A DNA stretch of 64,000 bases from Haliotis cracherodii (lineage: Eukaryota), in NCBI RefSeq assembly GCF_022045235.1, contig NW_027266266.1, positions 1,612,001 through 1,676,000 of the forward strand, written 5' to 3'. Positions within the stretch are counted from its first letter, which is position 1. Each line of letters opens with the position of its first letter. Positions 9,134 through 60,996 of the stretch are shown here, piece by piece. Made by a program: the position numbers and the translations under genes. Below the pieces are notes generated by a model that was not told where the DNA came from, ran no database searches, and was given only the letters and a program-made list of their open reading frames with translations.

Positions 9134-11996
9134 ATGAAGACAATGACGATGCTGCATACAACGTTCATCCTCCTCCTCTGCCTGGGATTTGTAGCAGGAG
9201 ACTATAGTTTCAATTATCTTTACAAATGATCATAATATGTGTATTGATGTTAATGTCTTAGCGAGTAGTTGTATGCAGGATGGGTGTGTTATTTGTAGCT
9301 TCGAGTTTTTCGTCTTGCAGTTCTCAACAACAAACCGTGCACGTCCAACATTATTTATAAGCATACACTATTTTTAATCACTAAACAAGTCGTACTCAGT
9401 TTTCAACTATTGAGGCCACTATTCAATTGTCGACCCAGGTTGGCATTTGTTTTATAAATCAGACACGTTATCAGTTGCGTTCGGAACTAGATATATAGTT
9501 TTAAGTCACCCGCACACTCTCTATGAAGTTGAACCCATGGGCTATTTGAGGGACATTTTGTCCGTTGTTGAACGCCACATTCAACAATATTCCAATTGTA
9601 TGATGGCGGCCGGTAAAATATCGAGTGTGGACACACGACTGAACCACGATCAACGGCACAAGGGTACGATGACACGGAATCAACCAAGTTGACCACTGAC
9701 CACAGTTTTCATTCAGTCGCCACTTACAAATATCTGAGGTTGTCTGGACCCGGAAGTTCTAAAGGAGCTGTCCATACGGAGATGACCAACACAGACAAGT
9801 ATATGGACACGTTAAATAAGTAGCTGAATTGGACATTCTTATCTTCGTTAAGATTCAAGTGTTCCGTTGTTTTAAAAAATGGATATGTTTTGCAGAATAT
9901 ATATTGTACCCATGTTGCTACGCATTCAATAACATAAAAAAACATTTGATTCCACCAGATAAATGACTAGGTGCGTTTCTGTAATACACTAGTAATGAAA
10001 AGGGAAACTTATAAACACATGACGTGGCAACTTTGCTTTGTGTTTTGGAGGTGCTTCCTTGAAGAAAAACAAAACTGATGTCATTACTCCATGCTCGGCT
10101 TCCACGAACTGACAGTTCTTGCATGAGCTGAGGTCGTTGCTGAGCTTCTATCTGGGGGAGAAGGTTCTACAGCCAGTGACCTCCACTCCAATAAGTAGCA
10201 GCTCGGGTAAACACGCCTTTGTGTTTCTGTGTATGTTTAGTCTCTGATCTCAGGAAGGTATACATAAGATGGTGATTTCAATACCTGAGGATTACTTTCA
10301 ATTCATGAAAATTATGTTTCCGTCGTCTGTATTCAACCGTTTACACTATCTCATGTACTTCGAATAATATAGCAAAAAACTGTGAAAAGTATCAAATATG
10401 CATGTCTCTCCCCGCCATGTATTTATTTGTCTGTACTGGAATCTATGTGTTTTCAGGTGGAGGAGCTGTGTTCACTCGGTGGGGAAAGACAACATGTCCG
10501 TCAGGAAATGATGTCATGTATAAAGGTAAAAAACATTTCGAGAGATACTTTTTCGGAGCGTCAAAAGGAAGTAAATAAGTTGGGTTTTTTTCAAATGGGG
10601 TCATAGCTGTGTTTTTAAGACATTTAAAAATTGTCAGGGTGTCAGTTGAATCAAAGTAAACTTTTTAAATGGAAGAGCATGTCATCTCTTGAGTAAGGTC
10701 TCTGTTTTGCCTTTCTTCGTTAGGACATATGAAATTAATTTGAAAAGGCCAATATCGAATATACTCCATTTCATGTATGAACAATCATGAATGTACTTTA
10801 CACGAATTGTTTTCGATCAATATTTATCGGTATATAAATCACATATTATTGTATTTTGGATAGCTAATGCTTCTGTGCATTCGATTCCAAATTTATTCTT
10901 GTACGGTTAAATCTACTAGTAACCTAGCTCTACACTGGAGACACAGTATGTTAATCTCCATTCCTATATAAAAAACACTCTTTGGTGTCAGCAATGTTAT
11001 TTATGGTGAGAAGAGATGAGGTTAAACATTGTGTTCACGATGAGTGCACTTGTATAGCGACGTGAATTCACAATCTGTGTGTGGCTGCTTGTGCGAGCCC
11101 TGACTGATGCCAGTTGCATTGTGTAAGCCTACTGAGATACCATAATAACAAGTTGATGAAATGACAATAAGGCAACGTTACATCAAACCATGCAGATTTC
11201 CAAAACATCCATGATTAACCCTGATCATCATGCATACATATCTCATACAACTTCAGTAAACATGCCATGCCCAAGATAGCAGCCCAGCATTATGTTCCGG
11301 AAGAATATCCACATTTCTGGTGTCAGCAATCTCTGCTGGCAAACATTTTACCATTATCTCGTGATATTTCTCGATATAAGGATCACGCGACCTTGATTAA
11401 CTAAGACTTATCAAAGCATTAACAATATGATGAGCACAAGTATTCTCTAAATTATTTGGTTTCCAGGCAACTATTTGTTTTGACTAAAACACAAGTAAAT
11501 GCTAGTCCCTTTCAATCTCCCAGGTTATGCAGGAGGAAGCCATTACACGGCCAAGGGTGGACCAGGGACAACTCTGTGCCTTCCTGACTCTCCGATCTAC
11601 GCCAATCATTCTACCACTGGTTCACGCAGTTATCTTTATGGAACTGAGTATCAAGTTGAACATCCCTCTCTTCCACTACGAAACATGTATGAACATGATG
11701 TACCTTGTGTGGTGTGCCGCAGTCGTCACAGGAGGAGTGCTGTCATGGTCCCTGCCAGGAATGAGTGTTTCCCTCAGTGGAATCTGGAATACAAGGGGTA
11801 CCTCTTCGGGGGAGCCACTTCACACCCAGGTTCAAGTGATTATGTGTGTGTAGATGGAGACCCAGAAGCCATAAAGGGAGGCCATGAAGACAAAAACGGA
11901 CATCTCTTGTACCCGGTGGAGTCCAAATGTGGCGCTCTGCCTTGTCCACCATATGTTGATGGATGGGAGATGACCTGTGCTGTTTGTACAAAATAA
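9134..11996 (+). pseudogene. G1: secreted spongin short-chain-collagen-related (C4-like NC1 domain) paralog, probably disabled or exon-skipping. Exons 9134-9197, 10051-10206, 10457-10525, 11524-11996
   Basis: Signal peptide MKTMTMLHTTFILLLCLGFVAG; exon 3 GGAVFTRWGKTTCPSGNDVMYK; exon 4 YAGGSHY..LCLP..YGTEY..DVPCVVC..EYKGYL..YVCVD..CGALPCPPY..TCAVCTK is intact. Lesions: intron-1 donor is GA (9198-9199) where the paralogs have GT, and exon 2 has TGA at 10110-10112. Family call is confident; pseudogene status is not. Confidence 0.7.
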
Positions 11997-12107
11997 AACA
12001 CTCCATTCAGTCCATACTGTCCGTCAAATATGTACATTAACTGTGTCTTACATACATGCGATAAACACATTCAGCTTTCATAAGACTAACGATATCCATT
12101 GAAAACT

Positions 12108-23800: not shown

Positions 23801-26800
23801 GGATGATATTAGTTACATCTCTTCGTGTTTAGACTAACATGCTCTAAGATATTTGTGAATTTGTTTCGCTATTCATACTTAAAACTGAAACATTAAAATA
23901 TGCATTGAACTGGAACACATAATTAGTGAGTGAGTGAGTTGTGTAAAGCTTTTTCTAATTATTGGTCCAGTTATCAGTACACAAGTATATTTTTCACTGA
24001 ATTGGTTATGATTATGATAACAGAAACGTTCCAATTTTTAAACGGCGTGTCAGCTTAATGTGGAAGGAAAGCCCTAAATGATGCAGGTCTTAAATGTTTA
24101 CCACTTTGGTGAAACCCACGAGCACGGGTATGGTGCTGACAAACCTACAAACATAATCGGGGCGAACTGGGATTCGAACTCACAATCATAGGTTTCTGGC
24201 GTGCCCAAGGGACACAACTCTGCACAGCGAAACGACTGGGCCACCCGTGCCCTCCGAACACATAATGAATTACATGATTTATACAGTGAGAAATAAGTGT
24301 CAGTATTATCAGTCCACTGTTTGTATTGTTTGCATTGTTTTGTCGGTCAACAGATTTGAACGTTACGCCGAATACGTGCTCGTCCGATTAAGAAATGACA
24401 ATTATATTGATAATGATGCATGTAAATTATGCAGACAAACGTTATACAAAATACAAAATAGTGATTGATTAGATATGTGTATCTATCTTAAGTCAGATAT
24501 ACGACGCTTGAGAGCGTCATTAACCAGTATATTCATTCCTTGGACAATAGAAAGTGGATGTGTTGTAAATTTCATTTAAAAACCCTAAACTCTCACAATT
24601 TCCTTCATTCTTACTGTCTTCAGAAATTAAATTCAATGCTAATGTGCTTCTAAAATATAGTTCAACAGATGTTAAGTCGGATTTCCCGACATATTTGTGC
24701 TTATTTGTAAATATCTACCACAGTGAGTCAAACTGATAGACTAACAGACAGATGCACAAACAAAAACTATACTTAAAATATACATACAATATAAGGATGA
24801 CAGCTGATTTAACATATGTTGGATGCCTCTCCATATGTGTAGTGTATCCAAGTACACATATCAACTGTGATAACACCATTGTCACAGCGATGGGAGCGGT
24901 GAGGTAACCTAGTGGTTAAAGCATTCGCTCCTTACTGAAGACCCAAGTTTGATTCCCCACATGGGTACAATGTGTGAAGCTCTGCTGTCCCCACCATGAT
25001 ATTGCTGGAATATTGCTAACAGCGGCACAAAACCATAACGTGATCAAATTACTATATACAAACTTTGTTTTGAGTTTTGTAGGTGCTTCCGTGAAGAAAA
25101 ACAATACTGATGTCATTACTCCATGCTCGGCTTCCACGAACCGGCAGTTTCTGCATGAGCTTAGGTCATTGCTGAGCTTCTATCTGGGGAAGAAGGTTCT
25201 ACAGCCAGTGACCTCCACTCCAATAAGTAGGAGCTCGGGTAAACACGCCTTTGTGTTTCTGTGTATGTTTAGTCTTTGATGTCAGGAAGGGATATATAAG
25301 ATAGTGATTTCAATACTTGATCATTGTTTTCAATTCATGAAAATTATGTTGCCGACGTCTGTATTCAACCGTTTACACTATCTCATGTACTTTGAATAAT
25401 ACAGCAAAAATGCGAAAAGTATAAAATATGCATGTCTCTCCCCGCCATGTATTTATTTGTCTGTACTGGAATCTATGTGTTTTTTTCAGGTGGAGGAGCT
25501 GTGTTCACTCGGTGGGGAAAGACAACATGTCCGTCAGGAAATGATGTCATGTATAAAGGTGAAGCATTTCGAGAGATACTTTTGCGGAGCGTCAAAAGGA
25601 AGTAAATAAGTTGTTTTTTTCAAATGGGGTCATAAATGTGTTTGATTTTATGACATTATAAAACTTGTCAGGGTGTCAGTTGAATCAAAGTAAACTTATT
25701 AAATGGAAGAGTATGTCAACTCTTGAGTAGGGCTCTGTTTTGCCTTTGTTCGTTATAATATATAAAGGCCAATATCGAATATACTCCATTTCATGTATGA
25801 ACAATCATGAATGTACTTTACACGAATTGTTTTCGATCAATATTTATCAGTATATAAATCACATATAAGATATGTATTTTGAATACCTAACGCTGCTGTG
25901 CATTCGATTCCCTATTTAATCTTGCACGGTTAAATCTACTGGTAACCTAGCTCTACACTGGAGACACAGTATGCTTATCTTCATTCTTATATCAAAAGCA
26001 ATCTCTTTGGTGTCAGCGATGTTATTAATAAGGTGAGATAAGATGAGCTTTAACGTTGTGTTCAAGATGATTGAACTTGTATAGCGACGTGAATACACAC
26101 ATTCTATGTGTGGCTGCGAGTTCTGACTGATGCCAGTTTCATAGTGTTACCCTACAGAGATACCATGCTTCATGCATACCTCACTTAGATGCATATAATA
26201 CCTGCCAGTCCTTGTTTTATCCCCTTTGAAGCTCGTTCACGAAGATTTCGAAGAGCATCAGAGAAAGCAGATTATAGAGTTCTGATACAACTTCAGTAAA
26301 CATGCCATGCCCAAGGTAGCAGCCCAGCATTATGTTCGGGAAGCATATCCATATTTCTGGTGTCAGCAGTCTCTGCTGGCAAACATTTTTACCGTTATCT
26401 CGTGATATTTCTCGATATAAGGATCACGTGGCCACGTTTATCACGCTGAAAATAGTGTTCGCATTTGCTTACACACGTATGTTGTACTTGGTTTAAATGA
26501 TGTACACTCGCCTGTTGCTGTGAGATTTCACGTCATTTTATCCATATGAGATATCAACGTACTTTGTACATGGTCTACATTCGCGGTTGCTGGTAGAAGT
26601 GGACATGCGTACCCATTCTGCGAACATCAATATTTTTCAGCTATCCATCTACATAATTTCACTACTATTTTGCCTTTTACACCCAATGGAATCTGTTTCT
26701 GTGAACAATCGAAATTGAGTATTCTCGGGCGTTGACGTTTTATATTTGTAAAAGGGTAAGCTTTCAGATGAAAAATGATCAATAGAATTCACCTCTTGTC

Positions 26801-27423
26801 TTGCCAAAGACTCAGTAAATTGATAAACTAAGACTTATGAATTCATTTACAATATGATGAGCACAAGTATTCTCTAAATTATTTGGTTTCCAGGCAACTA
26901 TTTGATTTGACTAAAACACAAGTAAATGCTAGTCCCTTTCAATCTCCCAGGTTATGCAGGTGGAAGCCATTACCAGGCCAAGGGTGGACCAGGGACAACT
27001 CTGTGCCTTCCTGACTCTCCGATCTACGCCAATCATTCTACCGCTGATTCACACAGTTATCTTTATGGAACTGAGTATCAACTTAATTATCCCTCTCTTC
27101 CACTACGAAACATGTATGAACACGATGTCCCTTGTGTGGTGTGCCACAGTCGTCGAAGGAGGAGTGCTGTCATGGTCCCTGCCAGGAATGATTGCTTCCC
27201 TGAGTGGCATCTTGAATACAAGGGGTACCTCTTCGGGGGAGCCACTTCACACCCAGGTTCAGGTGATTACGTGTGTGTAGATGAAGACCCAGAATCCATA
27301 AAGGGAGGCCATGCAAACAAAGACGGACATCTCCTGTACCTGGTCGAGTCTATCTGTGGTGCCCTGCCATGTCCACCATATGTTAATGGCTGGGAGATGA
27401 CCTGTGCTGTTTGTACAAAATAA
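20847..27423 (+). CDS. G2: secreted spongin short-chain-collagen-related (C4-like NC1 domain) protein, 253 aa. join(20847-20910,25083-25238,25490-25558,26951-27423)
   Basis: All GT-AG, phase-1 introns and an uninterrupted frame: MKSMTMLHKTFMLLLCLELVAG + ASVKKNNTDVITPCSASTNRQFLHELRSLLSFYLGKKVLQPVTSTPISRSSG + GGAVFTRWGKTTCP.. + ..CGALPCPPYVNGWEMTCAVCTK. Motif and Cys pattern match the sponge short-chain collagen C-terminal domain family. Confidence 0.9.
23167..23560. mobile_element. Non-autonomous MITE-like element with internal purine-rich GAGAAAGCRATA tandem repeats, in G2 intron 1
   Basis: Start TATGGTGGCTGAGGGGGAACATCG is close to the reverse complement of CGATGTCCCCTCTCGGCTACCATA, which ends related GAGAAAG-containing pieces at ~3285-3338 and ~50130-50177. 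Confidence 0.5.
24038..24255 (-). mobile_element. tRNA-derived SINE (family C); internally deleted + strand copy at ~34475-34582
   Basis: Minus strand has GGTGGCCCAGTCG (A-box-like) and GAGTTCGAATCCC (B box). Body GTGCTCGTGGGTTTCACCAAAG..CACATTAAGCTGACACGCCGTT is shared with the 34.5 kb copy. Confidence 0.65.
24892..25040 (+). mobile_element. tRNA-derived SINE (family A), ~40 bp upstream of G2 exon 2
   Basis: GGTAACCTAGTGGTTAAAGC..GATTCCCCACATGGGTACAATGTGTGAAGC..GATATTGCTGGAATATTGCTAACAGCGGC. Confidence 0.82.
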
Positions 27424-28704: not shown

Positions 28705-29095
28705 GACTCACGAATCCAACGTCGGCTTTCTTCCAGCTGGAGAGGTGCAGCTATGTTTATGGTAGTGAAGACCAATTTCATTTTGTTCTTCCTTTGTATA
28801 AAATATTTCACCCGGATGTACCATTTACCGTCACAGGTGGAGCGTGTCCTGGTCCGTGCCAGGAGCGAGTGCTTTCCTGGGTCTTATTTTGGAACGGTGT
28901 CTCTGTGGTAACTGGTGCACACAATAGATTCTGTTCTTTTCACAGTGGATGTCTGAACACAGGTATGTATAATAGCACAGCTTGTAATACAAAAAGGCAG
29001 ATACAGAAGTTAACTGGCGTTCAGTATGGTGGGGTACTCGTTTGCTAAAATGGTCCCATAATAGAGTCACATATGTTGTGTCGTTTTTACTTAAA
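28705..29095 (+). pseudogene. Decayed last-exon remnant of the older paralog (copy b, longest)
   Basis: SYVYGSEDQFHFVLPLYKIFHPDVP, then after a frameshift RHRWS..ARSECFPG, versus SYLYGTEYQ..LPLRNMYEHDVP..RHRRS..ARNECFPQ. The 3' part (Q(Y/C)GGVL..VTYVV) is a weaker match. Confidence 0.75.
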
Positions 29096-38433: not shown

Positions 38434-41400
38434 ATGAAGACAATGATGATGCTGCATACAACGTTCATCCTCCTCCTCAGCCTGGGACTTGGTGCAGGTA
38501 ACTATAGTTTCAATTATCTTTACAAATGATCATAATGTGTGTATTGATGTTAACTTCTTAGCGAGTAGTTGTAAGCAGGATGGGTGTGTTATTTGTAGCT
38601 TCGAGGTTTTCGTCTTGCAGTCCTCAACAACAAACCTTGCACTTCAAACATTACTTATAAGCAAGTTGTACTCAGTTTTCAACTATTGAGGTCACTATTC
38701 AACTGTCCACCCAGTTTGGTACTTGTTTTATAAATCAGACATGTTATCTCTGGCGTTCGGAACTAGATATATAGTTTTTATTCATCTGCACACTCTCTAT
38801 GAAGTTGAACGCATGGGCTATTTGAGGGACATTTTGTCCGTTGTTGAACGCCACATTCAACAATATTCCAATTGTATGATGGCGGTCGATAAAATATCGA
38901 GTGTGGGCACACGACTGAACCACGATCAACGGCGCAAGGGCACGATGACACGCAATCAACCAAGTTGACCACTGACCACAGCTTTCATTTAGTCGCCACT
39001 TACAACTATCTGAGGTTGCCTGGACCCAGAAGTTCTAAAGGAGCTGTCCATACGGAGATGACCAACACAGACAAGTATATGGATACGTTGAATAACTAGC
39101 TGGATGGGACATTCTTATCTTTGTTAAGATTCAAGTGTTCCGTTGTTTTAAAAAAATGGATATGTTTTGCAGAAGATATATTGTACCCATGTTGCTAGCA
39201 TTCAATAATGAAAAAATGAAAAGGGAAAACTTAAAAACACATGACGTGGCTACTTTGCTTTGTGTTTTGGAGGTGCTTCCTTGAAGAAAAACAAGACTGA
39301 TGTCATCACTCCGTGCTCGGCTTCCCCGAACAGGCAGTTTTTGCATGAGCTGAGGTCGCTGCTAAGCCTCTATCTGGGGGAGAAGGTTCCTGAGCCAGTG
39401 ACCTCCACTCCACAAAGTAGGAACTCGGGTAATCACGCCTTTGTGTTTCTGTGTATGTTTAGTCTTTGATGGCGCGAAGGTATATATCAGATGATGATTT
39501 TAATACTTGATGATTGCTTTCAATTCATGAAAATTATGTTGCCGACGTCTGTATTCAACCGTTTACACTATCTCATGTACTTTGAATAATACAGCAAAAA
39601 ATGCGAAAAGTATAAAACTGCATGTCTCTCCCCACCATGTATTTATTTGTCTGTACTGGAATCTATGTTTTTTTCAGGTGGAGGAGCTGTGTTCACTCGG
39701 TGGGGAAAGACAACATGTCCATCAAGAAATGATGTCATGTATAAAGGTAAAGCATTTCGAGAGATACTTTTTCGGAGCGTCAAAAGTTAGTAAATAGTTT
39801 TGGGTTTTTTTCAAAAGCGGGTCATAGCTGGGTTTTAAACATTGTCAGGGTGTCAGTTGAATCAAAGGAAACTTATTAAATGGTAGAATATCTCATCTCT
39901 TCAGTAAGGCTCTGCTTTGCCTTCCTTCGTTAGGACATATAAAATTAACTTGAAAAGGACAATATCAAATATACTCCATTTCATGTATGAACAATCATGA
40001 ATGTACTTTACACGAATTGTTTTCGATCAATATTTGTCGATATATAAATCACATATAAGATATGTATTTTGGATAGCTAACGCTGCTGTGCATTCGATTC
40101 CAAATTTAATCTTGCTCTACACTGGAAACACAGTATGTTTATCTCCATTCTTATATCAAAAGCAAACTCTTTGGCGTCAGCAATGTTATTTATTAGGTGA
40201 GATGAGATGAGGTTTAACGTTGTGTTCAAGATGATTGCACTTGTATAGCGACGTGAATACAGACATTCTATGTGTGGCTGCTTGTGCGAACCCTTACTGA
40301 TGCCAGTTGCATAGTATTAGCCTACTGAGATACAATGCTTCATGCATACCTCACTTAGAAGCATATAATGCCGGCCAGTACTTGTTTTATCCCCTTTTAA
40401 GCTCATTCTATGAAGATTTCGAAGAGCTTCAGAGAAAGCAGAATATAAAGTTGACTTAATGACAATAAGGTTACACTACATCAAACCATGCAGATTTCCA
40501 AAACATCCATGATTAAAACTGATCATCACGCATGCATATCTGATACAACTTCAGTAAACATGCCATGCCCAAGGTAATAGCCCAGCATTATGTTCCGGAA
40601 GCATGTCCACATTTCTGGTGTCAGCAGTCTCTGCTGGCAAACATTTTACCATTATCTCGTGATATTTTTCGTTCGGAGGATCACGTGGCTACGTGTATCA
40701 CGCTAAGAATAATATTTGCATTTGCTTACAAACGTATGTTGTACTTGGTTTAAATGATGTACACTCGCCTGTTGCTGTGAGATTTTACATAATTTTTCCA
40801 TATGAGATATCAACGTACTTTGTACATGGTCTACATTCGCGGTTGCTGGTAGAAATGGACATGCGTACCCTCTTTGCGAACATCAATACTTTTCAGTTAT
40901 CCATTTACATAATTTCACTACTATTTTGCCTTTTACACCCAATGGAATCTGTTTCTGTGAACAATCGAAATTGAGTATTCTCGGGCGTTGACGTTTTATA
41001 TTTGTAAAAAGGGTAACCTTTCAGATGAAAAATGATAAATAGAATTCACCTCTTGTCTTAACAAAGACTCAGCAAATTGATTAACTTAGACTTATCAATG
41101 CATTAACAATATGTTGAGCACAAGTAATCTCTAAATTGTTTGGTTTCCAGGCAACTATTTGATTTGACTAAAACACAAGTAAATGCTAGTCCCTTTCAAT
41201 CTCCCAGGTTATGCAGGTGGAAGCCATTACCAGGCCAAGGGTGGACCAGGGACAACTCTGTGCCTTCCTGACTCTCCGATCTACGCCAATCATTCTACCG
41301 CTGGTTCACGCAGTTATCTTTATGGAACTGAGTATCAAGTTGAACATCCCTCTCTTCCACTACGAAACATGTATGAACATGATGTACCTTGTGTGGTGTG

Positions 41401-41680
41401 CCGCAGTCGTCACAGGAGGAGTGCTGTCATGGTCCCTGCCAGGAATGATTGCTTCCCTGAGTGGCATCTGGAATACAAGGGGTACCTCTTCGGGGGTTCC
41501 ACTGAACACACAGGTTCAAGTGATTATGTGTGTGTAGATGAAGATCCAGAATCCATAAATGGAGGCCATGCAAACAAAAACGGACATCTACTGTACCTGG
41601 TCGAGTCTATCTGTGGTGCCCTGCCATGTCCACCATATGTTAATGGCTGGGAGATGTCCTGTGCTGTTTGTACAAAATAA
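38434..41680 (+). CDS. G3: secreted spongin short-chain-collagen-related (C4-like NC1 domain) protein, 253 aa. join(38434-38497,39273-39428,39678-39746,41208-41680)
   Basis: Open frame through all four exons: MKTMMMLHTTFILLLSLGLGAG; ASLKKNKTDVITPCSASPNRQFLHELRSLL..; GGAVFTRWGKTTCPSRND..; ..WEMSCAVCTK. The exon-2 acceptor is the rarer GAG, so a 201-aa skipped form is possible. Confidence 0.87.
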
Positions 41681-43621
41681 AACACTCCATATTGTCCAAA
41701 CTATCTGTCAAATATGTACATTAACTGTGTCTTACATACATCTGATAAACACATTCAGCTTTCTAATGATATCCATTTAAAACTGTGAAGATCCGGGATA
41801 GAATAGGTCTTCAGCAACCCATCCTTATCGTGACAGGTGACTATGCTTGTCGTAAGAGGCGACTTAAGACGTTAAACAACAAACAAACCAAACAAACACA
41901 CCATTTGAAACTGTATATGTAAGTTTATTGAGGTGCATGAAGAACGAATGATAGCATTTGGTTGTCTCATTATGTAAGGACAGACTGACCACGTTGACCA
42001 GTCAGTTTAGGTATTGTTGGCTGAAGGTCATAGCTGAAAACTTATCGTCAATCCATAGAGAATACTACACTATTCTCGTTTGATACCATTTTTATGAAAC
42101 GAGTGGACCTTCTAGGGTATCTGACAGCAAGGTCAAGTACCAGAGAATGTTCACGAGTGAATATTGACATATGCCCAAGTATGAGCATTGTTGACATTTC
42201 TATGCATACGCATTAACAATGTGCTCCTAATTTCTGATTCCTGAATTTCTTCAACTTTTGGTAATTCAAGTGCATTGTTGTTTGTACGCAGCAAACTTTC
42301 ATTTCACTACGCCTAACCTTTTAAGTTAAATCAAATTGAAAGTCGCGAAAGTGGTCGGATACGTCACGCTCATTGGGACCCTCGACAGAGGTCACGGTTA
42401 TCCAGTCAAAATGAATGAAACCTGTTTTCTTCACCACGTGGGTAATTAAGTGCTTGACATCATGAGCATTGATCCATGCAATTGGGATACGATGACATGC
42501 ATCAACCAAATCAGCGAGCCTGACCACCCGATCAAAGTCGCCTCTTACGACAAGCATAGTCGCCTTTTATGACAAGCATGGAAGACCCATCCTATATCGC
42601 CACTGATGAGCTTCTGGTCAGTGTCATTACACAAGGTATTTAACATGTATGGTTTCCTAATTGATAAAGGGCTAACATTGCAGCTTATCATCTAAATCAA
42701 TCAATCAAATAATGGTTTATTGAATGAAATGACATCGGCCCAAAGACACGCAAGTTACATTGACATGTTAGATTTTAGGCAACACCCAAGGTCCAAGACA
42801 CTCGTTACGGGGTGAGAACGTTTTATTCAGATCAATTAACACACCCTGAAACAATATATCATTCAATAAAAACAGCGTCATACAATATACTTGAGGCTTA
42901 AAAACAGTCCATTACACAAATTAGGTGAAGCATAAATGACAGATCGTATGACAATACAACAAGGGGAGATAACTCCTTGATTAACTCATATCTTCAAAAT
43001 ATCTTCAAATTAAATATATATGACACAGACGTCTTAATGCAATACGTATATCAAATGGAATAGATGTGATACTAAGTATCACATAAACATACGAGAATGC
43101 AAAATAACATAGTTCCTACCCGGTGTATGGCACTAGGGTGCTCACGACGTTCACCAAGCTCCGCCGAGCCAGATATACCAAGCGTACCTAAAATCCGTGT
43201 AAACTGATGTGAAATAAATTGTTTCATAACACAAGAGACATAATGTACTCATGACATGGATTCAAAACTATGGATAGCTGCAAACTGTGAGCATTATAGA
43301 AATTCACTGTTGAATCGACAGCAGCACTGATTGGGTAAACGAGTTATTTTAAGACGCTTTAAACAATACCCAATCCAAATGACTGTAGAAAATATCATAA
43401 TTACGTAGCAGAGCCAAACTGTGAGTGGAACTCACAGGAAGATTCAGTCATCATATGCTCAAAAACAGTAATATTTCTGATATGTAGGCAAAGTATGTCC
43501 TTTGTAAACACACCTACCATCATCTGTGACACGTGGAACTGCTATGAAGGGAAGTGCTATTGTTATCAGTGGCTTATTTCATCATTAATACGTTACTCGT
43601 TACCATGAATTCATACGACTA

Positions 43622-43965
43622 CTACCTTCCAGCTGGAGAGGTGCAGCTATGTTTATGGTAGTGAATACCAATTTTATCTTGCTCTTCCTTTGTATAAAAT
43701 GTTTCACCCGGGTGTCTCATTTACCGTCACAGATCTTATTTTGGGTCTTATTTCGGAACGGTGTCTCTGTGGTAACTGGTGCACGCAATAGATACTGGTC
43801 TTTTCACATTGGATGTATGAACACAGAAATGTATAATGAACACACCCTGTAATACAAAAAGTTAAAAAAATACAGAAGTTCACTGATGTTAAGTAAGGTG
43901 GGGTACTCGTTTGCTAAAATGGTTCCTCATTATAGTGCCATATATGTTGTGCCATTTTTACTTAA
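43622..43965 (+). pseudogene. Decayed last-exon remnant of the older paralog (copy c)
   Basis: AGCTATGTTTATGGTAGTGAATACCAA = SYVYGSEYQ; colinear with 28705-29095. Confidence 0.72.
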
Positions 43966-46509: not shown

Positions 46510-47105
46510 AAGGATGTCTAATGGGGTATATGTGATTTGTAGCTTCCACAATAACCACTGTAACATTGCACAGCAATTCCATGTTATCACGTATCTAAGA
46601 GTGTAAACAGGATTTGTGGATACCGCAATAACCACCGTAACATCGCGCAGTAATTCCATGTTATCGCCTGTCTGAGAGTGTAAACAGGATTTGTAGCTTC
46701 CACAATATCCACCGTAACATCACAAAGTTATCACCTGTCCAAAGGGTAAAGGTCATTTGTAGCTTAGCTCAGTCGGGATAATCGCCTACACAAGGGGAAA
46801 TATGGGATTTACCGTCCCAATATTCGTCTGTGATCATGACCGACTGTCCGACATTTGTGTGTTCATACCCGACTGCCCCGTCATTGGTGTGTTCATGCCC
46901 GACTGACCTGACATTGGTGTGATCATGTCCGACTGTACTGACATTGGTGAGCTTATGACCGACTGTCCCGACATTGCTGTGCTCATGCCCGACTGACCTG
47001 ACATTTGTGTGTTCATAACCGACTGACCTGACATTTGTGTGTTCATGCCCGACTGACCTGTCATTGGTGTGTTCATGCCCGACTGCCCTGTCATTGGTGT
47101 GTTCA
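46510..47105. repeat. Diverged 77-bp monomers (46510-46800) followed by 30-bp minisatellite (46835-47105)
   Basis: Colinear with 15505-16230; unit GACATT(G/T)GTGTGTTCATGCCCGACTGACCT. Confidence 0.88.
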
Positions 47106-48397: not shown

Positions 48398-50058
48398 TAC
48401 TCTCTCAAAAAGGGAACGCATAACGAAAATTGTAATTTGATGAAGAAATGTAACAGGGTGGGTTTTTCAAAAATATTTGTTTTGATAATGATTTCTCTGG
48501 TGTTTGTCTTAAAACGTCATATCCAAACGCATCCCGCATGAAAAACACGTATGTTAAACCATGATTTTCGATAGACGCATTTAATGTCACAGAACACGTT
48601 TTGCACGTGCAATGCGCGGGAAACTCGGGGACCACCTCGTGTCGTGGATGGGTATAAAAGATCGATCTCCGTCTTTTTTCATTCACTTTATTTGGAAGTT
48701 TGTGAAGACTGCAAAATGCCAAGACTGAGCCGCGCCAATCGTCACATCGCCATAGGTCTCCTGGAAGCAGGACAATCTCAACTCACAGTTGCCCGTCGAA
48801 TGAATGTTCATCAAAGCACGATTTCCCGTCTCTGGGAGAGATATCGGCAGCAGAACTCGGTGGAAGATGGGCTTAGAAGTGGACGTCCTCGAGTCATCAC
48901 TGCGGCGAAAGACAGGTACATCCGGGTACATCACCTGCGTCAGCGAACAGCTACAGCGACCACTACCGCTAGGCAAATACCCGGATTGAGAAGGATGTCT
49001 GCACAGACTGTCAGGAACAGACTACGAGAGGCAGGTTTAAGAGCAAGAAGACCCTACTGTGGCCCCGTTATGCGTCAGCAGCATCGACGTCATCGCGTTC
49101 ATTTGGTGAATTGGAGTCGAATCTGGTTCAGCGATGAATCAAGATTTTTGTTGGAACGACGCGATGGAAGAATGCGGGTGTACAGACGACGTCATGACCG
49201 TTTTGCCGACGCCTGTGTCCCCCAGGTGGACAGATTCGGCAGGGAGGGGGGGGGGGGGGATGATGTGGGGAGCCATATCCTACACTGGAAGAAGTGAGTT
49301 GGTGTTGATCCAAGGCAACCTGACAGCGCAACGCTACTGCGATCAAGTCCTTCGTCCACACCTCCTTCCCATTATCAACCGCCAGAGGGAGCTATTCCAG
49401 CAGGATAACGCCAGACCTCATACGGCACGTGTCACGAGGGCCTTCCTCCAGAATGTGAACATCAGTGTGCTGCTTGGCCCTCCGGATCACCAGACTTAAA
49501 CCCGATAGAACATCCGGATGCCCGGGACAGACGAGTGCGACAGCGTTACCCACAGCCCCAGACACTCCAGCAACTAGCACATGCACTACAGGCAGAGTGG
49601 GCTACATTGCAGCAACATCAGATTCAGAGACTAATTCGTTCTATGCCGAGACGATGTCGCGCAGTTCTGAACGCAAATGGTGGTCATACGAGGTACTGAC
49701 TTCAGCGCCATCAAACGTCGATGTGTGATTCATAAACTGACTTTTTCTGCTGTCTTATTAAACAGTGATATCTTGACATTTCCTGTGTAAAATTTCTTCG
49801 AATTCCATTTGCTATTAACTTGTCCACAGTGTATCAAAATAAAAAGAAATCTGTAGTTTAAATTCTTATATGCGTTTCTTTTTTGAGAGAGTGAGTGAGT
49901 GAGTATGGTTTTACGCTGCTTTTAGCAATATTCCAGCAATATCACGGCGGGGGACACCAGAAATGGGCTTTCACACATTGTACCCATGTCGGGAATCGAA
50001 CCCGGGTCTTCGGCGTGACGAGAGAACGCTACCCGACCGCCCCTTTTTTGAGAGAGTA
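48398..50058 (+). mobile_element. Tc1/mariner (DD34E-type) transposon, near full length; transposase 48716-49699 frameshifted
   Basis: TIRs TACTCTCTCAAAAGGGAACGCATA and TATGCGTTTCTTTTTTGAGAGAGT(A), with TA TSD. Protein MPRLSRANR..HTH..RSGRPR..WFSDESRF..MMWGAIS..FQQDNARPH..SPDL..IEH..GGHTRY*. Frameshifts at the G-run ~49245-49259 and near 49470. The paralogous site at ~3205 is empty. Confidence 0.95.
49893..50043 (-). mobile_element. Family A SINE inserted in the right TIR of the Tc1 element, 14-bp TSD
   Basis: TTTTTTGAGAGAGT at 49879-49892 and 50044-50057; (GAGT)n tail; GGGTTCGATTCCC B box on the minus strand. Confidence 0.92.
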
Positions 50059-52008
50059 TACTTTTTATCGTATATAGACACAATACACATGCCCCCCAAA
50101 AGTGGCCAAGAGGGGATATTGCTCTCCCGCGAGAAAGTGATAGAGCGATAGAGCGATGTCCCCTCTCGGCTACCATAATATACCGCATCAACACAAATTG
50201 CAAATTGACATGTCTAAACTATCTACTGTAATGCTTATAAAACAAGTCAGTGGATGAGGTCTTTATTAACTTTATGTCGGATGTGGCAATATACTGGCGT
50301 TTGAATCTTAAAAGACCTGGAGAACCAGTAATGAAAATAATTAATTAACAAATTAACCCGTGGTATGAACAGAATAGAGAGCATAACAGATGAGGGATGG
50401 AAAAGACAAATTGTTGTATGTTTGTTGTTTAACGCCGATATTCCAGCTATATGAGGATTGTCAGTAAATAATCGAGTCTGGACCACACAATCCAGTGATC
50501 AATATGATGAGCATCGATTAACGCATTTGGGTTACGATGACACGCATTATCCAAGTCTGAAATAATAGTAATTATAGTATAGCAGATTCCACATTGTGGA
50601 TGCAAGCTAACTGGCGGGTTCCCCATGCGAAAACAACACTTTGCTGCTGAAACTGACACAAAATATCTGCCTATATTTGTTTATTAAGAAGCCATGTCAA
50701 GTACCCCTTTATGGCTATGGCCGCATTACCGTGAACTAATATCACACGACACCCTACATACAGACTAGAGTATCACTTCTAAATGCCTTTCTAAGACCTT
50801 GAGTGACCAATTTAAGCCGGTAAAATCAGCAATAATATTTCATATAATCTGTTGGATTGTTCTAATTTTTTAATTTAAAGTTTGATATACGGCTTTTTCC
50901 ATTACAAGAGAGGCCGGTCACATGACTGATCCATCCTTGTGAAAAATACACCTTAACTATTGTAATATCGACTCCATTTTAGTCTTGGCTGACATTTACA
51001 GTCTACAGCAATCTATGAATTTACCTTCGTATCTATTTGACACATAATCTTCTTTATCATGACCTTCCAATGATCGACCAACTGATCAATGAAGAGGAGG
51101 CTCATTTACAACTTCGGCCATCGTGTCGGCCATTTTGACGTCTTTTACTTGTAAATGTTGTAAATGTATTAAGACGCGCTGTCATTGTACCCGACTTACT
51201 GAGGTAGTTCTTAACAGACCTTTCTCATCAAATGATATTATTTGAATATATTTGTTATAAACAAACTACAACAGATGTTCCCGTAGAGCAAGTTGAGCAT
51301 ACAGACGCTCACGTGACTTCTCGTTTTTAGGGAACTAAGCTCCGACGTTCATACAGATTGGCATGTAAAGGTTCTTAAATATAGACTGATGCATTTTTTA
51401 TTTGTCACTTGTGAGCAGTGGGTATTTAGCCGTACCACTTGAACAATGACTGGCTCTGGTCTGTTGTCACTGTTCACATTCATATCGATTACATTCTGTG
51501 TCACATAGAGGGACGTTGAAATTGAAAACAGCCAACACTACTTACTGTGAATACTTATCGGCTGCCTTTGTCTGACCAACTCAGTTATAAAAGCTTAGCA
51601 CAGATGGTCATAGCACATCACGATTGAAAGTCAGATTTGAATTAAAAATATAAAATCGATTTCCACCTCTCCCCACGTATATGCAGCACCTGCCTGAAGG
51701 TGGCATGTCCTGTTTTGAAATATTATCAGTTGTCACTATCATTGAGGGATGGAAGAGTAGTGAAACTTTCGTTCACTCGGATGGGGACCGGGGACTGATT
51801 TCACAAATGCCCTGTGTATTCAATCGATATTACTGCAATGTTGTTTAAAGCTTGCTTGCTCATTCGACAATTATTTTGTAATTATTGCAACATTTCAGTT
51901 TGCTTTACTTGTTAATTGATTTTGTATGCATACAAATGTTCTTGAGATCATAGATATAGCGAACTATGACAGTGTTATTTCAAATAATTGGTTATGCATC
52001 ATTACATA

Positions 52009-54006
52009 TACTCAACAACTAAAGTTCCTGTGACACCAATATTTAAGTGTATTTTTCAAACAAGTAAAGTTTGGTTTTCAATATTGTAGTACATGTATGT
52101 AATCAAGTCACAAAAACGCAACTGCTACAGAAAAGCATGCATTCCATGCAAAAGTTGACTTTTATGCAAGCCCCAAAATCGCTACATCCGGGTTCCACAG
52201 CTGCAGGACCATTTCACCACGGCGGCGTCAACATCCTCACAACTACCGGGACTGCATCGAATATCGGATCATACTGTTCGAAATCGTCTGAGAGCAGCCA
52301 GTATTCTAGACAGGAGACCCGTGCAGCGTAACATCCTGCCGCTGCATCATCTCCGTGCACGTCTGCAGTGGTGTCATCAGAGAGTTAAAAGCATTAAGCA
52401 GATGGAGAAGTGTTCAGTTCACAGACGAGTCCCGTTTTCTGCTGGGACGTGCTGATGGACGCGTGTACGGACGTCGTAACTAACATTATGCTGAAAATTG
52501 CGTTCAGCAAGTGGATCGTTTTGGAGGTGGAAAACGTCATGGTGTGGGGAGGCATTCATCACGGAGGCCGGACAGCGCTTGTAGGAGTGGATGGTTCTCT
52601 GGGCTACGCTACCGAGACGAGTTCCTGCAGCGCCACGTTGTCCCCTCCATCAACGCCAATGGCGCCATCTTTCAGCAGGACAAAGCCAGACCCCACGTCG
52701 CACGTGTTTGCACAAAGCTTTTGCGTCAGAACAACGTGCCTACGCTACCCTGGCCTGCCCGCTCTCCAGACTTGTCCCCCTATCTGTGGGACGTGCTGGA
52801 TCGTCGTGTCCGTCAACGTCAACCACCGCCACAGACACTTCAGGAACTATTTGCTGCACTAGAGCAGGAGTGGCAGAACATCCCTCTGGCTGTCATTCGG
52901 ACTTCGATGGTGTCTAGTGGCAGTCGCTGATAGCAGCTCTAAGCAGGCCGTGATGGTTACTGATGGTTTCTGTTCAGTGCATATTGATACATCGCAAAGA
53001 ACAATGAAAGAACGAAGGGTTGTTTATTTTACGATAAAACATTGTTTTATCATGGCGTCTTTTCTGGAGACGTCATTTATTAGACTACGTTATATTTTAG
53101 AGGGGAGTGTCCGATGAGTTGTTCCCCATAGATGTAGCTAGGCAACGCAGAGAAACGCAACTGCCGATCAATCACATCCAAAGTTTAGAGAGATATGACG
53201 ATTGTCATTGGGAAAAGGTGCAGGTAATCGATGTAAGGACTGAGAATGTGTGGGAAATACCCACCTGTGCATAAAATGGACTTGTCCGACATTGACGAGG
53301 TCGGATTCTATTAAGGGAGTCATCAAAATTCAAATACGGGGAAATATTTTGTAACCTTTTACATTTCATCATCAGCCTTTATGAGGTTGTACATAATGTA
53401 GATATCCCTTCAACAAAACAACGTGAATGTCGCTCCCCTGGCCTCTCACCAATCGAGCACATGTGGGCCGGGATGAGATGGATCGGTGCCTTCGACGTCA
53501 ACCACGTGTTCCACGACACTCCAGGAACTGCTCCAGCAGATATGGACAGATATCCCACAGGACTTTGTGCGACGCCTGGTCTGTTCCATAAGACGAAGAT
53601 GTGTTGCTTGTGTACCGGCCATAAAATTTCCGAGTCCCGTGATGGGATTCGAACCACTCACCTTCTGATCCGAGGTCGGACGCCTTGTCCACATGACCAA
53701 AGAGGTTAACCCCGTCAGCATGCTGACAAGGTAAGGATGTCATCTGTGGGATGACTCCACGTCCTGCTACACTTGCATCGCCACCAAAGGTGGACACACA
53801 TAATATTGATTTGTAAATTGACATTTTGGCATGTTCATGTTTTTTATGAATTCACACATTTTCTGAAGTCACTATGGCAGATTAACCATTTTAACACTAA
53901 AAGGAGTCTTTTATCTGTTGCAAACCGAAATTGTTTCAGATTTGGTAAAAAACATAACTTTGCATTAAATCTTATTCAATGTAACAGGAACTTTTGTTGT
54001 TAAGTA
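52009..54006 (+). mobile_element. Duplicate of the composite degenerate Tc1/mariner element at 5296-7248
   Basis: Same TIRs and TA flanks; ORFs 52410-52930 carry VMVWGGI, FQQDKARPH and WPARSPDLSP. Confidence 0.88.
53611..53771 (-). mobile_element. 161-bp solo LTR-like insertion (TGTA..TACA, 4-bp TSD CTTG) carrying a tRNA-Arg(TCG)-like sequence; Helenus-type TRIM candidate
   Basis: Empty paralogous site GTTGCTTGCATCGC at ~7010-7023. CTTG at 53607-53610 and 53772-53775. Minus strand reads TGGTCATGTGGACAAGGCGTCCGACCTCGGATCAGAAGGTGAGTGGTTCGAATCCCATCACGGG. Confidence 0.78.
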
Positions 54007-57000
54007 TATTTATTTTCGAAATAACATTATTATACTCACAAAAGCCTTTCTCCTGGCCAGGTATCACAACAGTGAAAGATCAACTGTGTCTTAAAACTGC
54101 TAAGACATGGCTTTATATAATCAAGAGACAAAACGCATGCTTTTCACATGTCAAAATGGTGTTATTTGGGCGACCCGTTCCAGTATTAAGGATGACATCT
54201 ACCCCTACTAAAATACACCTCAAAAGTTATGATAAAAGAGCACATGGTGTGACAACAAGTGCTACTCATGTAGCCAGTGTTACAATGACGATGGCCAGTG
54301 ACGGACATTCCAAATGTACGGACACTGACTCCGAAGACCCCGCGGTAGCCCGGATACAGTGACGTTCAGTGCTGTGTAACTCTGTCGCTGCACGTGCTCT
54401 CACCGAGGGGGAATGTTTCACGCGACAACAGAAAGCACTATCTGTTGACAATTAGATGATGTGCGGCTCTTCTGATCTCGCATCCAACCATGAAAGAATT
54501 AAATTGTTTTATAGGCATTACTTAGAAGTTGGCGTATGACAAGGTAGACACAATTTTTATGGATAACAACTTCTTTAATACTGTAAAAAGCGACGTTTCG
54601 GTATAGATACTTATACCGTTGTCAAGCACGATCGCTTTTTACAGTATTAAAGAAGTCGTTATCCATAAAAATTGTGTCTTCCATGAAAGGATTTGCAATA
54701 GTATGTTTGACATTTTCAAAAATGAGAGTTGGAGATTCATAGTGACGCCGACTGAATGCGTGACTGTTATAGTGCTTATTGTTGACATGACAGTGCGTGA
54801 CACAGTTGAAGCGTTCGGAATATTGATGATATTTTAAAATATATGTTGCCTATAGAAACCTTTGGGTGAGATTTAACATTGCATCACCGTGTATGATTTA
54901 CTGTAGTGCCATGTGACTTTCTCAATTAAAGTATATTGGAAGCCTGACTTAAGCAATAACAGTTGGACATGATCATGCAGGCAGATAGAGCATTGTGTAT
55001 AAATCAATATGGTGCGTGTGGATGTTTGTGACTCGGGCAGTTAACTGTGATGCCGTACTTGGTAACAGATGAGGTTTAGCTTTGAAAACCTTACATGTAT
55101 TTCTGTTTTTTCTGACACAGACTCTACCAAAATGTCATGTTTGTGTAATTGCTTGCATGAAACTCAGAAAAGATTAGTAGATTGTGCTTACTAACGGATG
55201 AAGTTTAGCTTATATAACATCCGTTATTGCTGACAAGGCGTTTGTGTAATTGTTTACATGAGGCCCAGAAAAGATTAAAAGCCCTGTCAATAATAATACA
55301 ACATCTCGTGTTGTGAAATACAAAGCACAGTTATCAAACAACTCACAACAGCAATGTTCGAAAGTATAAATAAGTTATTCTGAGGAGAATATCACATCTT
55401 CTTTATTAAATGTTTGTTTTACATTCCTGGCATGGTAGGCCTTATAATTTGCATGTGGACATTCTACAGAGCGACAGAAACACGCACTCTATACACAGAT
55501 GCGAGACAGTCCCACATACAGATGATATGTAATATTTTATAACAGGGGGATGGGGTAGCCTCAGAATTAAAGCGTTTGCTCGACACGCCGACAACCCGGG
55601 TTCGATTCCCAACCTCTTTACAGTGTGAGAAGCCAATTTCTGTTGTCCCCCGACGTGTTATTGCGGGACTATTGCTAATGGCGGTGTAAAACAATACGCA
55701 TTCACTCACTCTGCAGTGTTAAAAGCAAACCATGCAATACTCGTCATCCAATGGGTAACAGGTACACTGTGCATCGTAATATTCATATATTACTGCAGCT
55801 CCAATCCTTGATGTATACTTTTGACATTTGAGGTATAATCTACTAAGATATCAAAGAGCATCATACTGCTCTTGCTCAGAAGTTGTTTGATCAAGGTTAC
55901 ACGACTCAAAGCCTTTGTAAAGCTTTCAAAATGTTAATGGTAGGCAGTTTTATGTTTAGGACATTTCCAAATTTAACGCAACAGTGACAAACATGACAAT
56001 GCCATTCCTTATTTTATGTTATCATATGTTCCTGTGTTTATTCAGGTGATCAATTGACTTGCCTTTGTATGTGTTTGTGACGGATATCACCGGTTGGGCA
56101 GGATACGCTCGCATGGTGTCGGGTGCAATTCTTTATTTTGTGCCATATAATCCTGTGTTTTTTCAGAAGATCAATTGACTTGTCATTGCACCGGTTGGCT
56201 CGCCTTTTCGCGAACACCTGGTGTCATCACTACCTGATAGTTACTCATAAACACAATCATGTCCATGACACAGTCGGAATCATACAATCGACTTTAACAG
56301 AGACTTCTTGTGGCTATGGAAAGGGACTTTTCCCTTTATTGATATCTATTGAATATTCTCAACGTGGGTTTAGGCAAACAAAAACCTACATTTGTTTTTA
56401 TTTGTTAAAGTGTTTGTTGCGGAACATACTTACCTTTGCACGAACACCTGGTGTCACCACTCATTTTAAGTGATGCAGTTGTAATCACACCCTAGCATGA
56501 TGTGTGTCCTGTCATTGTCTCATCTTCTCTTCTGTTACTCATTCATCAATAATAATTTTCACCACTATTTTGCCTTTCTCTCCCAACGGAACATCTTTCA
56601 ATTGTGTAAAGTACTGAAATAGATTGCATACAACCCTCATCTTTAGTACTAGGTCCCTGTCTGTGAAAAACAACACAACTGGTTATGTATATTATGGACG
56701 CTCTTATCATGCATTTTCATTCACTTTCATTTTACAGAATGATTAACGGGTATTTCGCACATTCAGAATATTTGGTTGAATTATTAAACTCTCACAGTAG
56801 ATGATCCTTCCTTTCCGTTCTTGTGTTTAGTTTACCTTTAACAAAGTTCATCTTCCAAAACATAACAATCTGTCTCCCGAAAACAGACAATTCACCTGTG
56901 ACTGCACTGTCGATAATGTCAGCTGATTAAGCCAACATGTTGCATCCTCTCTGATATGCGTTCGTCTCATAACCATAAAGATCACAACGATACTTTCAGC

Positions 57001-58264: not shown

Positions 58265-60996
58265 ATGAAGTCAATGACGATGCTGCATACAACGTTCATC
58301 CTCCTCCTCAGCCTGGAACTTGGTGCAGGTTACTATAGTTTCAATTATCTTTACAAATGATCATAATCTGTGTATTGATGTTAACGTCTTAGCGAGTAGT
58401 TGTATGCAGAATGGGTGTGTTATTTGTAGCTTCGAGTATTTCGTCTTGCAGTTCTCAACAACAAACCTTGCACTTCCAACAATATTTATAAGCATACACT
58501 TTTTTAATCACTAAAAAAGTTGTACTCAGTTTTCAACTATTGAGGTCACTATTCAATTATCCACCCAGTTTGGTACTTGTTTTATAAATCAGACACGTTA
58601 TCTCTGGCGTTCGGAACTAGATATATAGTTTTTATTCACTCGCACACTCTCTATGAAGTTTAACGCATGGTCTATTTGAAGGACATTTTGTCCGTTGCTG
58701 AACGCCACATTCAGCAATATTCCAATTGTATGATGGCGGTCGGTAAAATATCGAGTGTGGATATATAAGCATTTGATTCCACGAGATAAATGACTAGGTG
58801 CGTTTCTGTAATACACTAGTAATGGAGAGGGAAACTTAAAAACACATGATGTGGCCACCTTGCTTTGTGTTTTGGAGGTGCTTCCTTGAAGAAAAACAAA
58901 ACATGTCATTACTCTGTACACGGCTTCCACGAACCGACAGTTCCTGCATGAGCAGAGGTCGCTGCTGAGCCTCTATCTGGGGGAGAAGGTTCTACAGCCA
59001 GTGACCCCTACTCAACAAAGTAAGAACTCGGGTAAACACACCTTTGTGTTTCTGTGTATGTTAAGTCTTTGATGTCAGAAAAGTATGCATAGGATGGTAA
59101 TAATGAAAATAATGAAAAGAAAAAACTTAAAAACACATGACGTGGCCACTTTCCTTTGTGTTTTGGAGTTGCTTCCTTGAAGACAAATAAGACTGATGTC
59201 ATTACTCCGTGCTCGGCTTCCCCGAACATTCAGTTCTGATGGTGATTTCAATACTTTATGATTGCTTTCAATTCATGAAAAGTATGTTGCCGTCGTCTGT
59301 ATTGAACCGTTTACACTATCTCATGTACTTTGAATAATACAGCAAAAAATGCGAAAAGTATAAAATATGCACGTCTCTCCCCGCCATGTATTTATTTGTC
59401 TGAACTGGAATCTATGTTTTTTCAGGTGGAGGAGCTGTGTTCACTCGGTGGGGAAAGACAACATGTCCTTCAGGAAATGATGTCATGTATAAAGGTGAAA
59501 CATTTGGGATAATTTTTCGGAGCGTCAAAAGGATGTAAATAATGTGGGTTTTTTTTAAATGGGGTCATGATTTTTTATGACATTTTAAAAATTGTCAGGG
59601 TGTCAGTTGAATCAAAGTAAACCCTGTAGGCTCTGTTTTGCCTTTCTTCGTTGGGACATATGAAATTAATTTGAAAAGGCCAATATCGAATATACCCCAT
59701 TTCATGTATGAACAATCATGAATGTACTTTACACGAATTGTTTTCGATCAATAGTTATCGGTATATAAATCACATATTATTGTATTTTGGATAGATAATG
59801 CTGCTGTGCCTTCGATTCCAAATTTAATCTTGCACGGTTAAATCTACTGATAACCTAACTCTACACTGGAGACACAGTATGTTAATCTCCATTCTTATAT
59901 CAAAAAAACTCATTGGTGTCAGCAATGTTATATATGGTGAGATGAGATGAGGTTTAACGTTGTGTTCAGGATGATTGCACTTGTATAGCGACGTGAATTC
60001 ACACATTCTGTGTGTGGCTGCTTGTGTGAGCCCTGACTGATGCCAGTTGCATTGTGTTAGCCTACTGAGATACCATAATAAGAAGTTGATGAAATGACAA
60101 TAAGGCTACGCTACATCAAACCATGCATAAATCCATGATAAATCCTGATCATCACGCATACATATCTGATACAACTTCAGTAAACACGCCATGCGAACAT
60201 CAATATTTTTCAGTTATCCATTTACATAATTTCACTACTATTTTGCCTTTTAAACCCAATGGAATCTGTTTCTGTGAACAATCGAAATTGAGTATTCGCG
60301 GTCGTTGACGTTATATATTTGTAAAAGGGTAACCTTTCAGATTAAATATGATAAATAGAATTCACCTCTTGTCTTGCCAAAGACTCGGCAAATTAATTAA
60401 CTAAGACTTATCAATGCATTAACAATATGATGAGCACAAGTATTCTCTAAATTGTTTGGTTTCCAGGCAACTATTTGATTTGACTAAAACACAAATAAAT
60501 GCTTGTCCCTTTCAATCTCCCAGGTTATGCAGGAGGAAGCCACTGCGGGGCCAAGGGTGGACCAGGGACAACTCTGTGCCTTCCTGACTCTCCCATCTAC
60601 GCCAAGCATACTACAGCAGGATCAGGCAGTTATCTTTATGGAACTGAGTATCAAGTTGAACATCCCTCTCTTCCACTGCGAAACATGATTCAACACGATG
60701 TACCTTGTGTGGTGTGCCGCAGTCGTCACAGGAGGAGTGCTGTCATGGTCCCTGCCAGCAATGCGTGCTTCCCTGAGTGGCATCTGGAATACAAGGGGTA
60801 CCTCTTCGGGGGAGCCACTACACACACAGGTTCAAGTGATTACGTGTGTGTGGATGGAGACCCAGAACCCATAAGGGGAGGCCATGAAGACAAAAACGGA
60901 CATCTCTTGTACCCGGTGGAGTCTAAATGTGGCGCTCTTCCTTGTCCACCATATGTTGATGGTTGGGAGATGACCTGTGCTGTTTGTACAAAATAA
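58265..60996 (+). CDS. G4: secreted C4-like NC1 domain paralog, intact only if exon 2 is skipped. join(58265-58328,59426-59494,60524-60996), 201 aa; exon 2 (58878-59031) is frameshifted
   Basis: Exons 1, 3 and 4 are open and joined in phase 1; donor is GTTACT. Exon 2 is 154 nt (2-nt deletion at ACTGAT). A partial second exon-2 copy at ~59169-59241 ends in TGA. Could be a pseudogene. Confidence 0.68.

Follow-up and report, generated by a model that had tools for sequence, protein, structure and literature searches.

What kind of gene is repeated along a 64,000-nucleotide stretch of the abalone Haliotis cracherodii (contig NW_027266266.1, positions 1,612,001 to 1,676,000 of the forward strand; hereafter the window, within which positions are counted), and what might its protein do? 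It had been predicted from the letters alone that four tandem paralogs in this window encode secreted proteins with a two-lobed, ten-cysteine domain related to the NC1 domains of spongins and of collagen IV, with no collagen helix, and that they are the best candidate there for an undescribed system. As argued below, these four genes, G1 to G4, belong to a real collagen-free variant of a known domain family, the one related to the spongin short-chain collagens, and the array to which the window belongs counts at least 15 copies, not four. To call the system undescribed is too strong, the domain family having been described since 2006 (via PMC5395295, PMC5560861 and PMC12749355) and collagen-free members being the majority of its database relatives.

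A six-frame scan of the window finds the motif set of the domain (RWG..CP, YAGGSHY, LCLP, YGxEY, VPCxVC, EYxGYL and CGxLPCPPY) together four times, always on the plus strand, with the last exons spaced 15.4, 14.3 and 19.3 kb apart (Table 1), in agreement with the original prediction. Each gene has exons of 64, 156 (154 in G4), 69 and 473 nt with phase 1 introns, and the self-comparison of the window gives four units having about 70-95% identity across exons, introns and flanks. G2 (20847-27423) and G3 (38434-41680) are intact and open, each encoding 253 residues with ten cysteines in the head, and for these two the predicted protein stands; G1, by contrast, is broken and probably a pseudogene, and G4 is frameshifted when its exon 2 is included and carries an eleventh Cys. 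A reading of G4, too, as a pseudogene was dropped, because its exons 1, 3 and 4 joined are exactly database protein P0139, a 201-residue form without the stalk that exon 2 encodes. The ratio of nonsynonymous to synonymous differences (pN/pS) in exon 4 is 0.37-0.47 and does not separate broken from intact copies. Note also that the G2 model is letter-for-letter identical to P0121, an uncharacterised Haliotis cracherodii protein at NCBI, and that, when 14 full-length last exons were set against such records, 8 proved identical to one, so the records are not independent evidence. Secretion of the G2- and G3-type proteins is likely, as suggested by the signal-like leader, which is hydrophobic in G2 (Kyte-Doolittle peak 2.6, residues 11-21) and is modelled as a helix at residues 3-18 in the paralog P0001. 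As was claimed, the window has no run of at least four Gly-X-Y triplets in any plus-strand frame; the three runs that a search of six frames gives are low-complexity stretches on the minus strand.

The fold of the head was predicted with an AlphaFold2 model of P0001 (the array copy L005), made from a 110-row alignment, in which the mean predicted local distance difference test score (pLDDT) is 83 and a beta-rich head occupies residues 72-250. With this model Foldseek gives 33 matches at an expectation value (E) of 0.001 or less, the best at 5.4e-6, and all rows listed above E 0.034 are collagen IV NC1 domains. Structural alignment (VIA) to collagen IV NC1 gives Z 8.1 and a root-mean-square deviation of 3.8 for 139 aligned residues over the range 72-250, and a wide structure search gives NC1 at Z 6.9 and 5.4 with the next chain at 2.6. 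The head is thus predicted to have the collagen-IV-type NC1 fold, as had been proposed: a Z near 8 is modest, but the NC1 match extends over the entire domain and has no rival. Apicomplexan perforin beta-domains, considered as fold relatives from weak Foldseek rows (E 0.3-0.5), were taken as chance. Sequence searches of solved structures yield nothing real (four matches at E of at least 0.6, and in another search one at 0.11), Pfam has no match for the head, and its C4 family is found in none of the four last exons of the window and is absent from the 25 Pfam families listed for 110 relatives. The 16 C4 matches of the genome lie on three other contigs, with 0 of the 16 within the array. Four collagen IV-type loci (L021-L024) were seen on contigs C54, C67 and C12; C67 carries two, some 130 kb from each other and in opposite orientation.

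The kinship with proteins named short-chain collagen C4 is borne out by the closest collagen-bearing match, the coral member P0031 (49% identity, E 6.7e-41), and by a tree in which the abalone heads are nested among collagen-bearing animal members. Gly-X-Y precedes the same domain in 7 of the 120 listed close homologs and in 28 of the 150 top representatives; the others (113 and 122, partial proteins counted) are free of collagen and, where not partial, have helical or other N-termini. The whole domain family, which in our Pfam and solved-structure searches has neither a Pfam model nor a solved structure, comprises 3,171 clusters at 50% identity (E<=0.001). More than one match to the domain occurs in 38 of 146 new representatives, and Pfam on 68 longer ones finds 19 with collagen, 4 with TNFR-like repeats, 3 with MACPF, 2 with Sushi and 1 with an F5/8 galactose-binding domain. 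In the flanked proteins, full domains stand in runs of three (11 runs), nine (1) or two (1), with six singles. The aligned repeats (n=39) keep 8 of the 10 Cys and do not fall within the clade that the 17 animal heads make up. They cluster with repeats at the same place of other triads or else as newly arisen triplications, of which four proteins show separate ones; this speaks for a working unit of three domains and against contamination by animal sequence.

In receptor-type proteins that have a membrane segment and TNFR-like repeats (Choanoeca perplexa, Bicosta minor), such triads make up the outer end. Among the proteins seen are P0165, P0185 and P0167, membrane receptors of choanoflagellate type having 9, 3 and 6 domains before the TNFR-like repeats, one of them with SH2, and P0176, P0178 and P0189, which come from Ancoracysta twista, a predatory protist, and are MACPF proteins whose C-terminal end consists of three spongin-type NC1 domains, a pairing not found in the literature searched. 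MACPF proteins usually hold target-binding domains at their C-terminal end. The presence of triads both in receptors and at MACPF ends points to a trimeric binding module, and by analogy with these tandem triads the working unit of the abalone protein is probably a trimer. In PMC5560861, spongins are restricted to invertebrate metazoans; we do not claim the protist members as new, since a preprint on collagen domains across eukaryotes (10.1101/2021.10.08.463732) may already report such proteins.

Splicing was followed in contigs of four runs (presumed RNA, from relatives with 82-99% likeness) aligned to G3. These contigs omit exactly 775, 249 and 1461 nt of G3 with GT..AG ends, intron 1 being spliced in one of the four runs, intron 2 in two and intron 3 in three; they join exons 1-2-3-4 directly, and in them no collagen exon lies between leader and head. 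The family is therefore spliced as modelled in relatives, the expression of the window's own copies being outside this result, and the predicted lack of an upstream collagenous region spliced into the transcript agrees with it. Contig depth differs widely among the runs and is unsuitable for ranking expression. Exon 2 encodes an amphipathic alpha-helix (residues 37-52 of the P0001 model), with a hydrophobic moment of 0.36-0.58 in all six Haliotis proteins tested, and is under purifying selection (pN 0.028, pS 0.265, seven open copies). The proteins had been pictured as free globular domains, which holds as to the lack of collagen and fails in that most copies have this helical stalk under purifying selection and the unit is probably a trimer. 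Since exon 2 is 156 nt long with phase 1-1, it can be skipped in frame. The array copies L004 and L009 have 201-residue database models, and H. rufescens has a 201-residue sister of L009 together with two loci whose isoform pairs differ by exon 2. An unusual GAG acceptor precedes exon 2 in G1, G3, G4, L003 and L004, and exon 2 is broken in three of these five copies vs none of the seven array copies with a TAG acceptor; a weak acceptor may favour skipping. Shuffling of exon 2 onto other gene families was not seen: 14 of its 15 genomic matches adjoin family exons, and the remaining one, a weak match, is found some 21 kb in front of one of the array copies.

Genome-wide there are at least 25 exon-4 matches, and 15 of these are in the 450 kb around the window. 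Of the 21 that lie beyond the window itself, 20 were examined with about 6 kb of DNA each, and no Gly-X-Y was found in these 20 loci. In the array, three of the 15 copies are clearly broken (G1, L006, L011), three have a disabled exon 2 with the remaining exons open (G4, L004, L009), and nine are free of lesions in the exons inside the examined DNA (for most of them this DNA stops short of exon 1, and for two it stops short of exons 1-3). The H. asinina copies form a separate clade, i.e., an independent expansion. With its broken and exon-2-disabled copies and this separate clade, the array is, judged from sequence, under birth-and-death turnover, as had been suggested. Every copy in the window is followed by a decayed exon-4 remnant, implying that the duplicated unit already held a dead paralog. 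Smaller and older clusters (L012-L020, 41-71% identity; C3:6.22-6.50 Mb, C6:8.92-9.04 Mb and C6:13.67-13.73 Mb) share the exon 3/4 boundary and have no Gly-X-Y within about 6 kb per locus. The satellites between the genes of the window, the length of which varies from unit to unit, are possible substrates for unequal crossing-over. It was also observed that a 5-kb block preceding G1 recurs, with 87-92% identity, ahead of G4.

Table 1. Positions of the family exons and neighbouring features in the window.
Feature	Position	Strand	Remark
G1 exon 1	9134..9197	+	signal-like leader; GA instead of GT at first donor
G1 exon 2	10051..10206	+	in-frame stop, codon 42; GAG acceptor at 10048-10050
G1 exon 3	10457..10525	+	head domain start, RWG motif
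G1 exon 4	11524..11996	+	remainder of head domain, open
Decayed exon-4 remnant of older paralog, behind G1	14613..14696	+	tblastn E 0.008
G2 exon 1	20847..20910	+	signal-like leader
G2 exon 2	25083..25238	+	linker; amphipathic helix coded at about 25142-25195
G2 exon 3	25490..25558	+	
G2 exon 4	26951..27423	+	
Decayed exon-4 remnant behind G2	28749..28878	+	tblastn E 7e-4
G3 exon 1	38434..38497	+	
G3 exon 2	39273..39428	+	open; GAG acceptor at 39270-39272
G3 exon 3	39678..39746	+	
G3 exon 4	41208..41680	+	
Decayed exon-4 remnant behind G3	43612..43728	+	tblastn E 0.04
G4 exon 1	58265..58328	+	
G4 exon 2	58878..59031	+	2-nt deletion, frameshift when included; GAG acceptor at 58875-58877
Partial second exon 2 copy within G4 intron 2	59148..59236	+	
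G4 exon 3	59426..59494	+	
G4 exon 4	60524..60996	+	extra Cys codon at 60542-60544
Decayed exon-4 remnant behind G4	62720..62848	+	tblastn E 0.06
Duplicated 5-kb block	3208-8591; 50057-55350		holds open reading frames near 5377-6295 and 52159-52930 that we take to be Tc1/mariner-like transposase remnants
Further open reading frame	48575-49699		presumably also a Tc1/mariner-like transposase remnant
Satellites of 77, 30 and 33 bp	1274-2879; 15777-16230; 17546-18939; 31097-34367; 46534-47105		between genes

We now consider where the copies differ. In 35 distinct Haliotis heads the mean entropy is 0.79 outside the strands vs 0.25 in the strands, with peaks at residues 129-133, 142-152, 194-196 and 231; Q105 and S196, and likewise Q140-N142 and I231, are equivalent positions in the two lobes, so that in the alignment the variation sits in paired loops of both lobes. 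Codon tests were made on 13 last exons of the array, with L006 (internal stop), L011 and L012 (length change) excluded. The copies are mosaic (PHI p=0.001), with nearest neighbours differing between thirds of the exon. In our own site models on one tree, M1a/M2a gives p=1e-4 to 2e-4 and M7/M8 gives p=1e-4, with the top sites Q105, S196 and I231; with three segment trees, the nine lesion-free copies give p=0.005. In 40 null simulations with recombination the M1a/M2a statistic did not exceed 15.3, against 18.2 for the data on one tree. Taken together these codon tests are suggestive, not firm, as to positive selection. An extra Cys was observed at the tip of the variable hairpin of lobe 1 in G4 and likewise in L004 and L005, and it is a possible site of an inter-chain link.

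The reading that we favour, with a probability of about 0.45, is by analogy with the molluscan C1q-domain proteins: the abalone proteins would be secreted trimers that, at mucous epithelia, use variable outer loops to bind surfaces, whether foreign or of the host. The leader would export the chain from gland cells, three heads would assemble as in collagen IV, and the exon-2 helix would replace the collagen rod and aid trimer formation. The face that collagen IV uses for trimer-trimer contact would be freed for target binding, this face being formed by the paired variable loops, which unequal crossing-over and gene conversion would reshuffle into new combinations; a stalk-less form could arise via skipping or loss of exon 2. 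Aligned by eye with the animal's own collagen IV, loop 129-133 may lie at the position of collagen IV chloride-site residues 74-78, and loop 142-146 presumably lies, on a similar by-eye mapping, near what we take to be the cross-linking Met. Tissue hints come from relatives matched by name: the gill-only transcripts of a mussel include the family name beside C1q, apextrin and fucolectin (PMC4581086), and name-matched proteins or genes appear in the mussel gill proteome (PMC5302490), as an octopus ink peptide (PMC10142993), in Nematostella neuroglandular cells (PMC12549020) and in oyster gill (PMC12040131), with a genome table of Pinna also counting the family. By analogy, such relatives point to gland-rich surfaces, which fit defence and adhesion alike.

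Several results weigh against this reading. The overall ratio of nonsynonymous to synonymous rates (dN/dS) in exon 4 is 0.34, with no 10-codon window above 0.8, and with segment trees for all 13 exons the selection test drops to p=0.10 (three trees) or p=0.05 (two trees) and the site list changes. The variable loops were assigned to one face by eye, and profile comparison with collagen IV aligns only 38 columns, where the two lobes join, with no part of lobe 2 among them. The four runs aligned to G3 show no exon 1-to-3 joint, so that the stalk-less form rests on automatic database models. Among name-matched genes, those of an anemone are raised in the pedal disc (PMC6626399), an oyster short-chain collagen C4-like gene is tied to shell substrate and biomineralisation (PMC12040131), and in pearl oyster the level of one such gene is raised in fast-growing animals (PMC11270918). 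Moreover, since residues 74-78 are in the trimer-trimer contact of collagen IV (PMC4878091), a variable face at this contact would fit self-assembly equally well.

The last point leads to the main rival, a structural role, in which trimers would dock head to head and cross-link mucus, pedal adhesive or matrix, with the loops setting which paralogs pair. The sole solved relatives are indeed assembly domains, the variable loops seem to fall on the trimer-trimer contact, an extra Cys is left unpaired in some copies, and the genes raised in the anemone pedal disc fit as well. We nevertheless consider this role rather unlikely, for the proteins have neither a collagen rod nor a second cross-linking end, the chloride-site residues of that contact are absent from G2 and present in the animal's own collagen IV, fast turnover and mosaic loops are atypical of matrix scaffolds, and the protist domain caps receptors and MACPF proteins. 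A further proposal, that the mantle secretes the proteins as part of the shell matrix, draws on the two bivalve reports just given, both of which are name matches. The net charge of the heads is close to neutral, neither an acidic nor a low-complexity tract occurs in them, and none of the three papers found on short chain collagen and Haliotis has a title on abalone shell; we hold this proposal to be improbable. It may also be asked whether the array needs any role for its loops at all, i.e., whether it reflects drift, or amplification for dosage, in a region rich in repeats and prone to recombination, the copies being alike and the loop variation being relaxed constraint. This is in line with the three clearly broken copies and three more without a working exon 2 among the 15, with units that hold satellites and Tc1-like remnants, and with a selection test that is weak after allowing for recombination. 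It remains improbable in our judgement, given that p=0.005 persists for the nine lesion-free copies, that the top sites fall at matching places of both lobes and that H. asinina has a separate expansion; moreover, it is silent on the role of the protein.

If target recognition by variable loops is the correct reading, a wider and more doubtful proposal can be made: the spongin-type NC1 head might be an ancient, pre-animal trimeric module for target recognition, kept as single-chain triads in choanoflagellate receptors and protist pore-forming proteins, and in molluscs a third large soluble recognition family beside the C1q and fibrinogen heads. In abalone, conversion would shuffle the loops of the binding face, mixed trimers would multiply specificities and the optional stalk exon would switch between stalked and bare heads. 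Expression studies in molluscs routinely take the genes of this domain for collagen genes, although most of them have no collagen. Were the domain a recognition module, molluscan immunity would gain an overlooked family and the collagen IV head a non-matrix ancestry. The array offers a clean test case, since its paralogs are almost identical apart from a small number of loops and occur with and without the stalk.

Finally, we compare these genes with known systems; a functional study of a collagen-free member, or of these abalone genes, was not found in the literature searched, most subscription journals being outside it. The ApeC domain (apextrin C-terminal, PF16977) is likewise a small Cys-rich secreted domain that follows MACPF domains; its Atlas feature score is 0.80, in the chance range, and Pfam gives it no match to the abalone head. 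Molluscan C1q-domain proteins, an analogy, also combine leader, short helical stalk and globular head with tandem expansion and variable loops, and ligand binding has been shown for some of them; the abalone fold is unrelated, with no C1q match in Pfam or Foldseek. Collagen IV NC1 (PF01413; 1LI1, 1M3D, 1T60, 5NAZ) has the same predicted fold and two-lobe plan and local sequence likeness to the abalone head across the lobe junction, whereas the abalone head is about 45 residues shorter and has 10 Cys, no HSQ and no triple helix, and the genes are not collagen IV. In PMC5395295, a spongin is a short collagen domain followed by an NC1 domain with 10 Cys, seven shared with collagen IV and three of its own, having neither HSQ nor the swap region. 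The heads of G2 and G3 are the same two-lobed, 10-Cys C-terminal domain with no HSQ, and they escape Pfam C4 as the spongin short-chain collagens do (PMC12749355). Unlike those collagens, and thus failing their collagen criterion, the abalone genes have an optional helical exon in place of the collagenous domain and form a tandem array of at least 15 mosaic copies.

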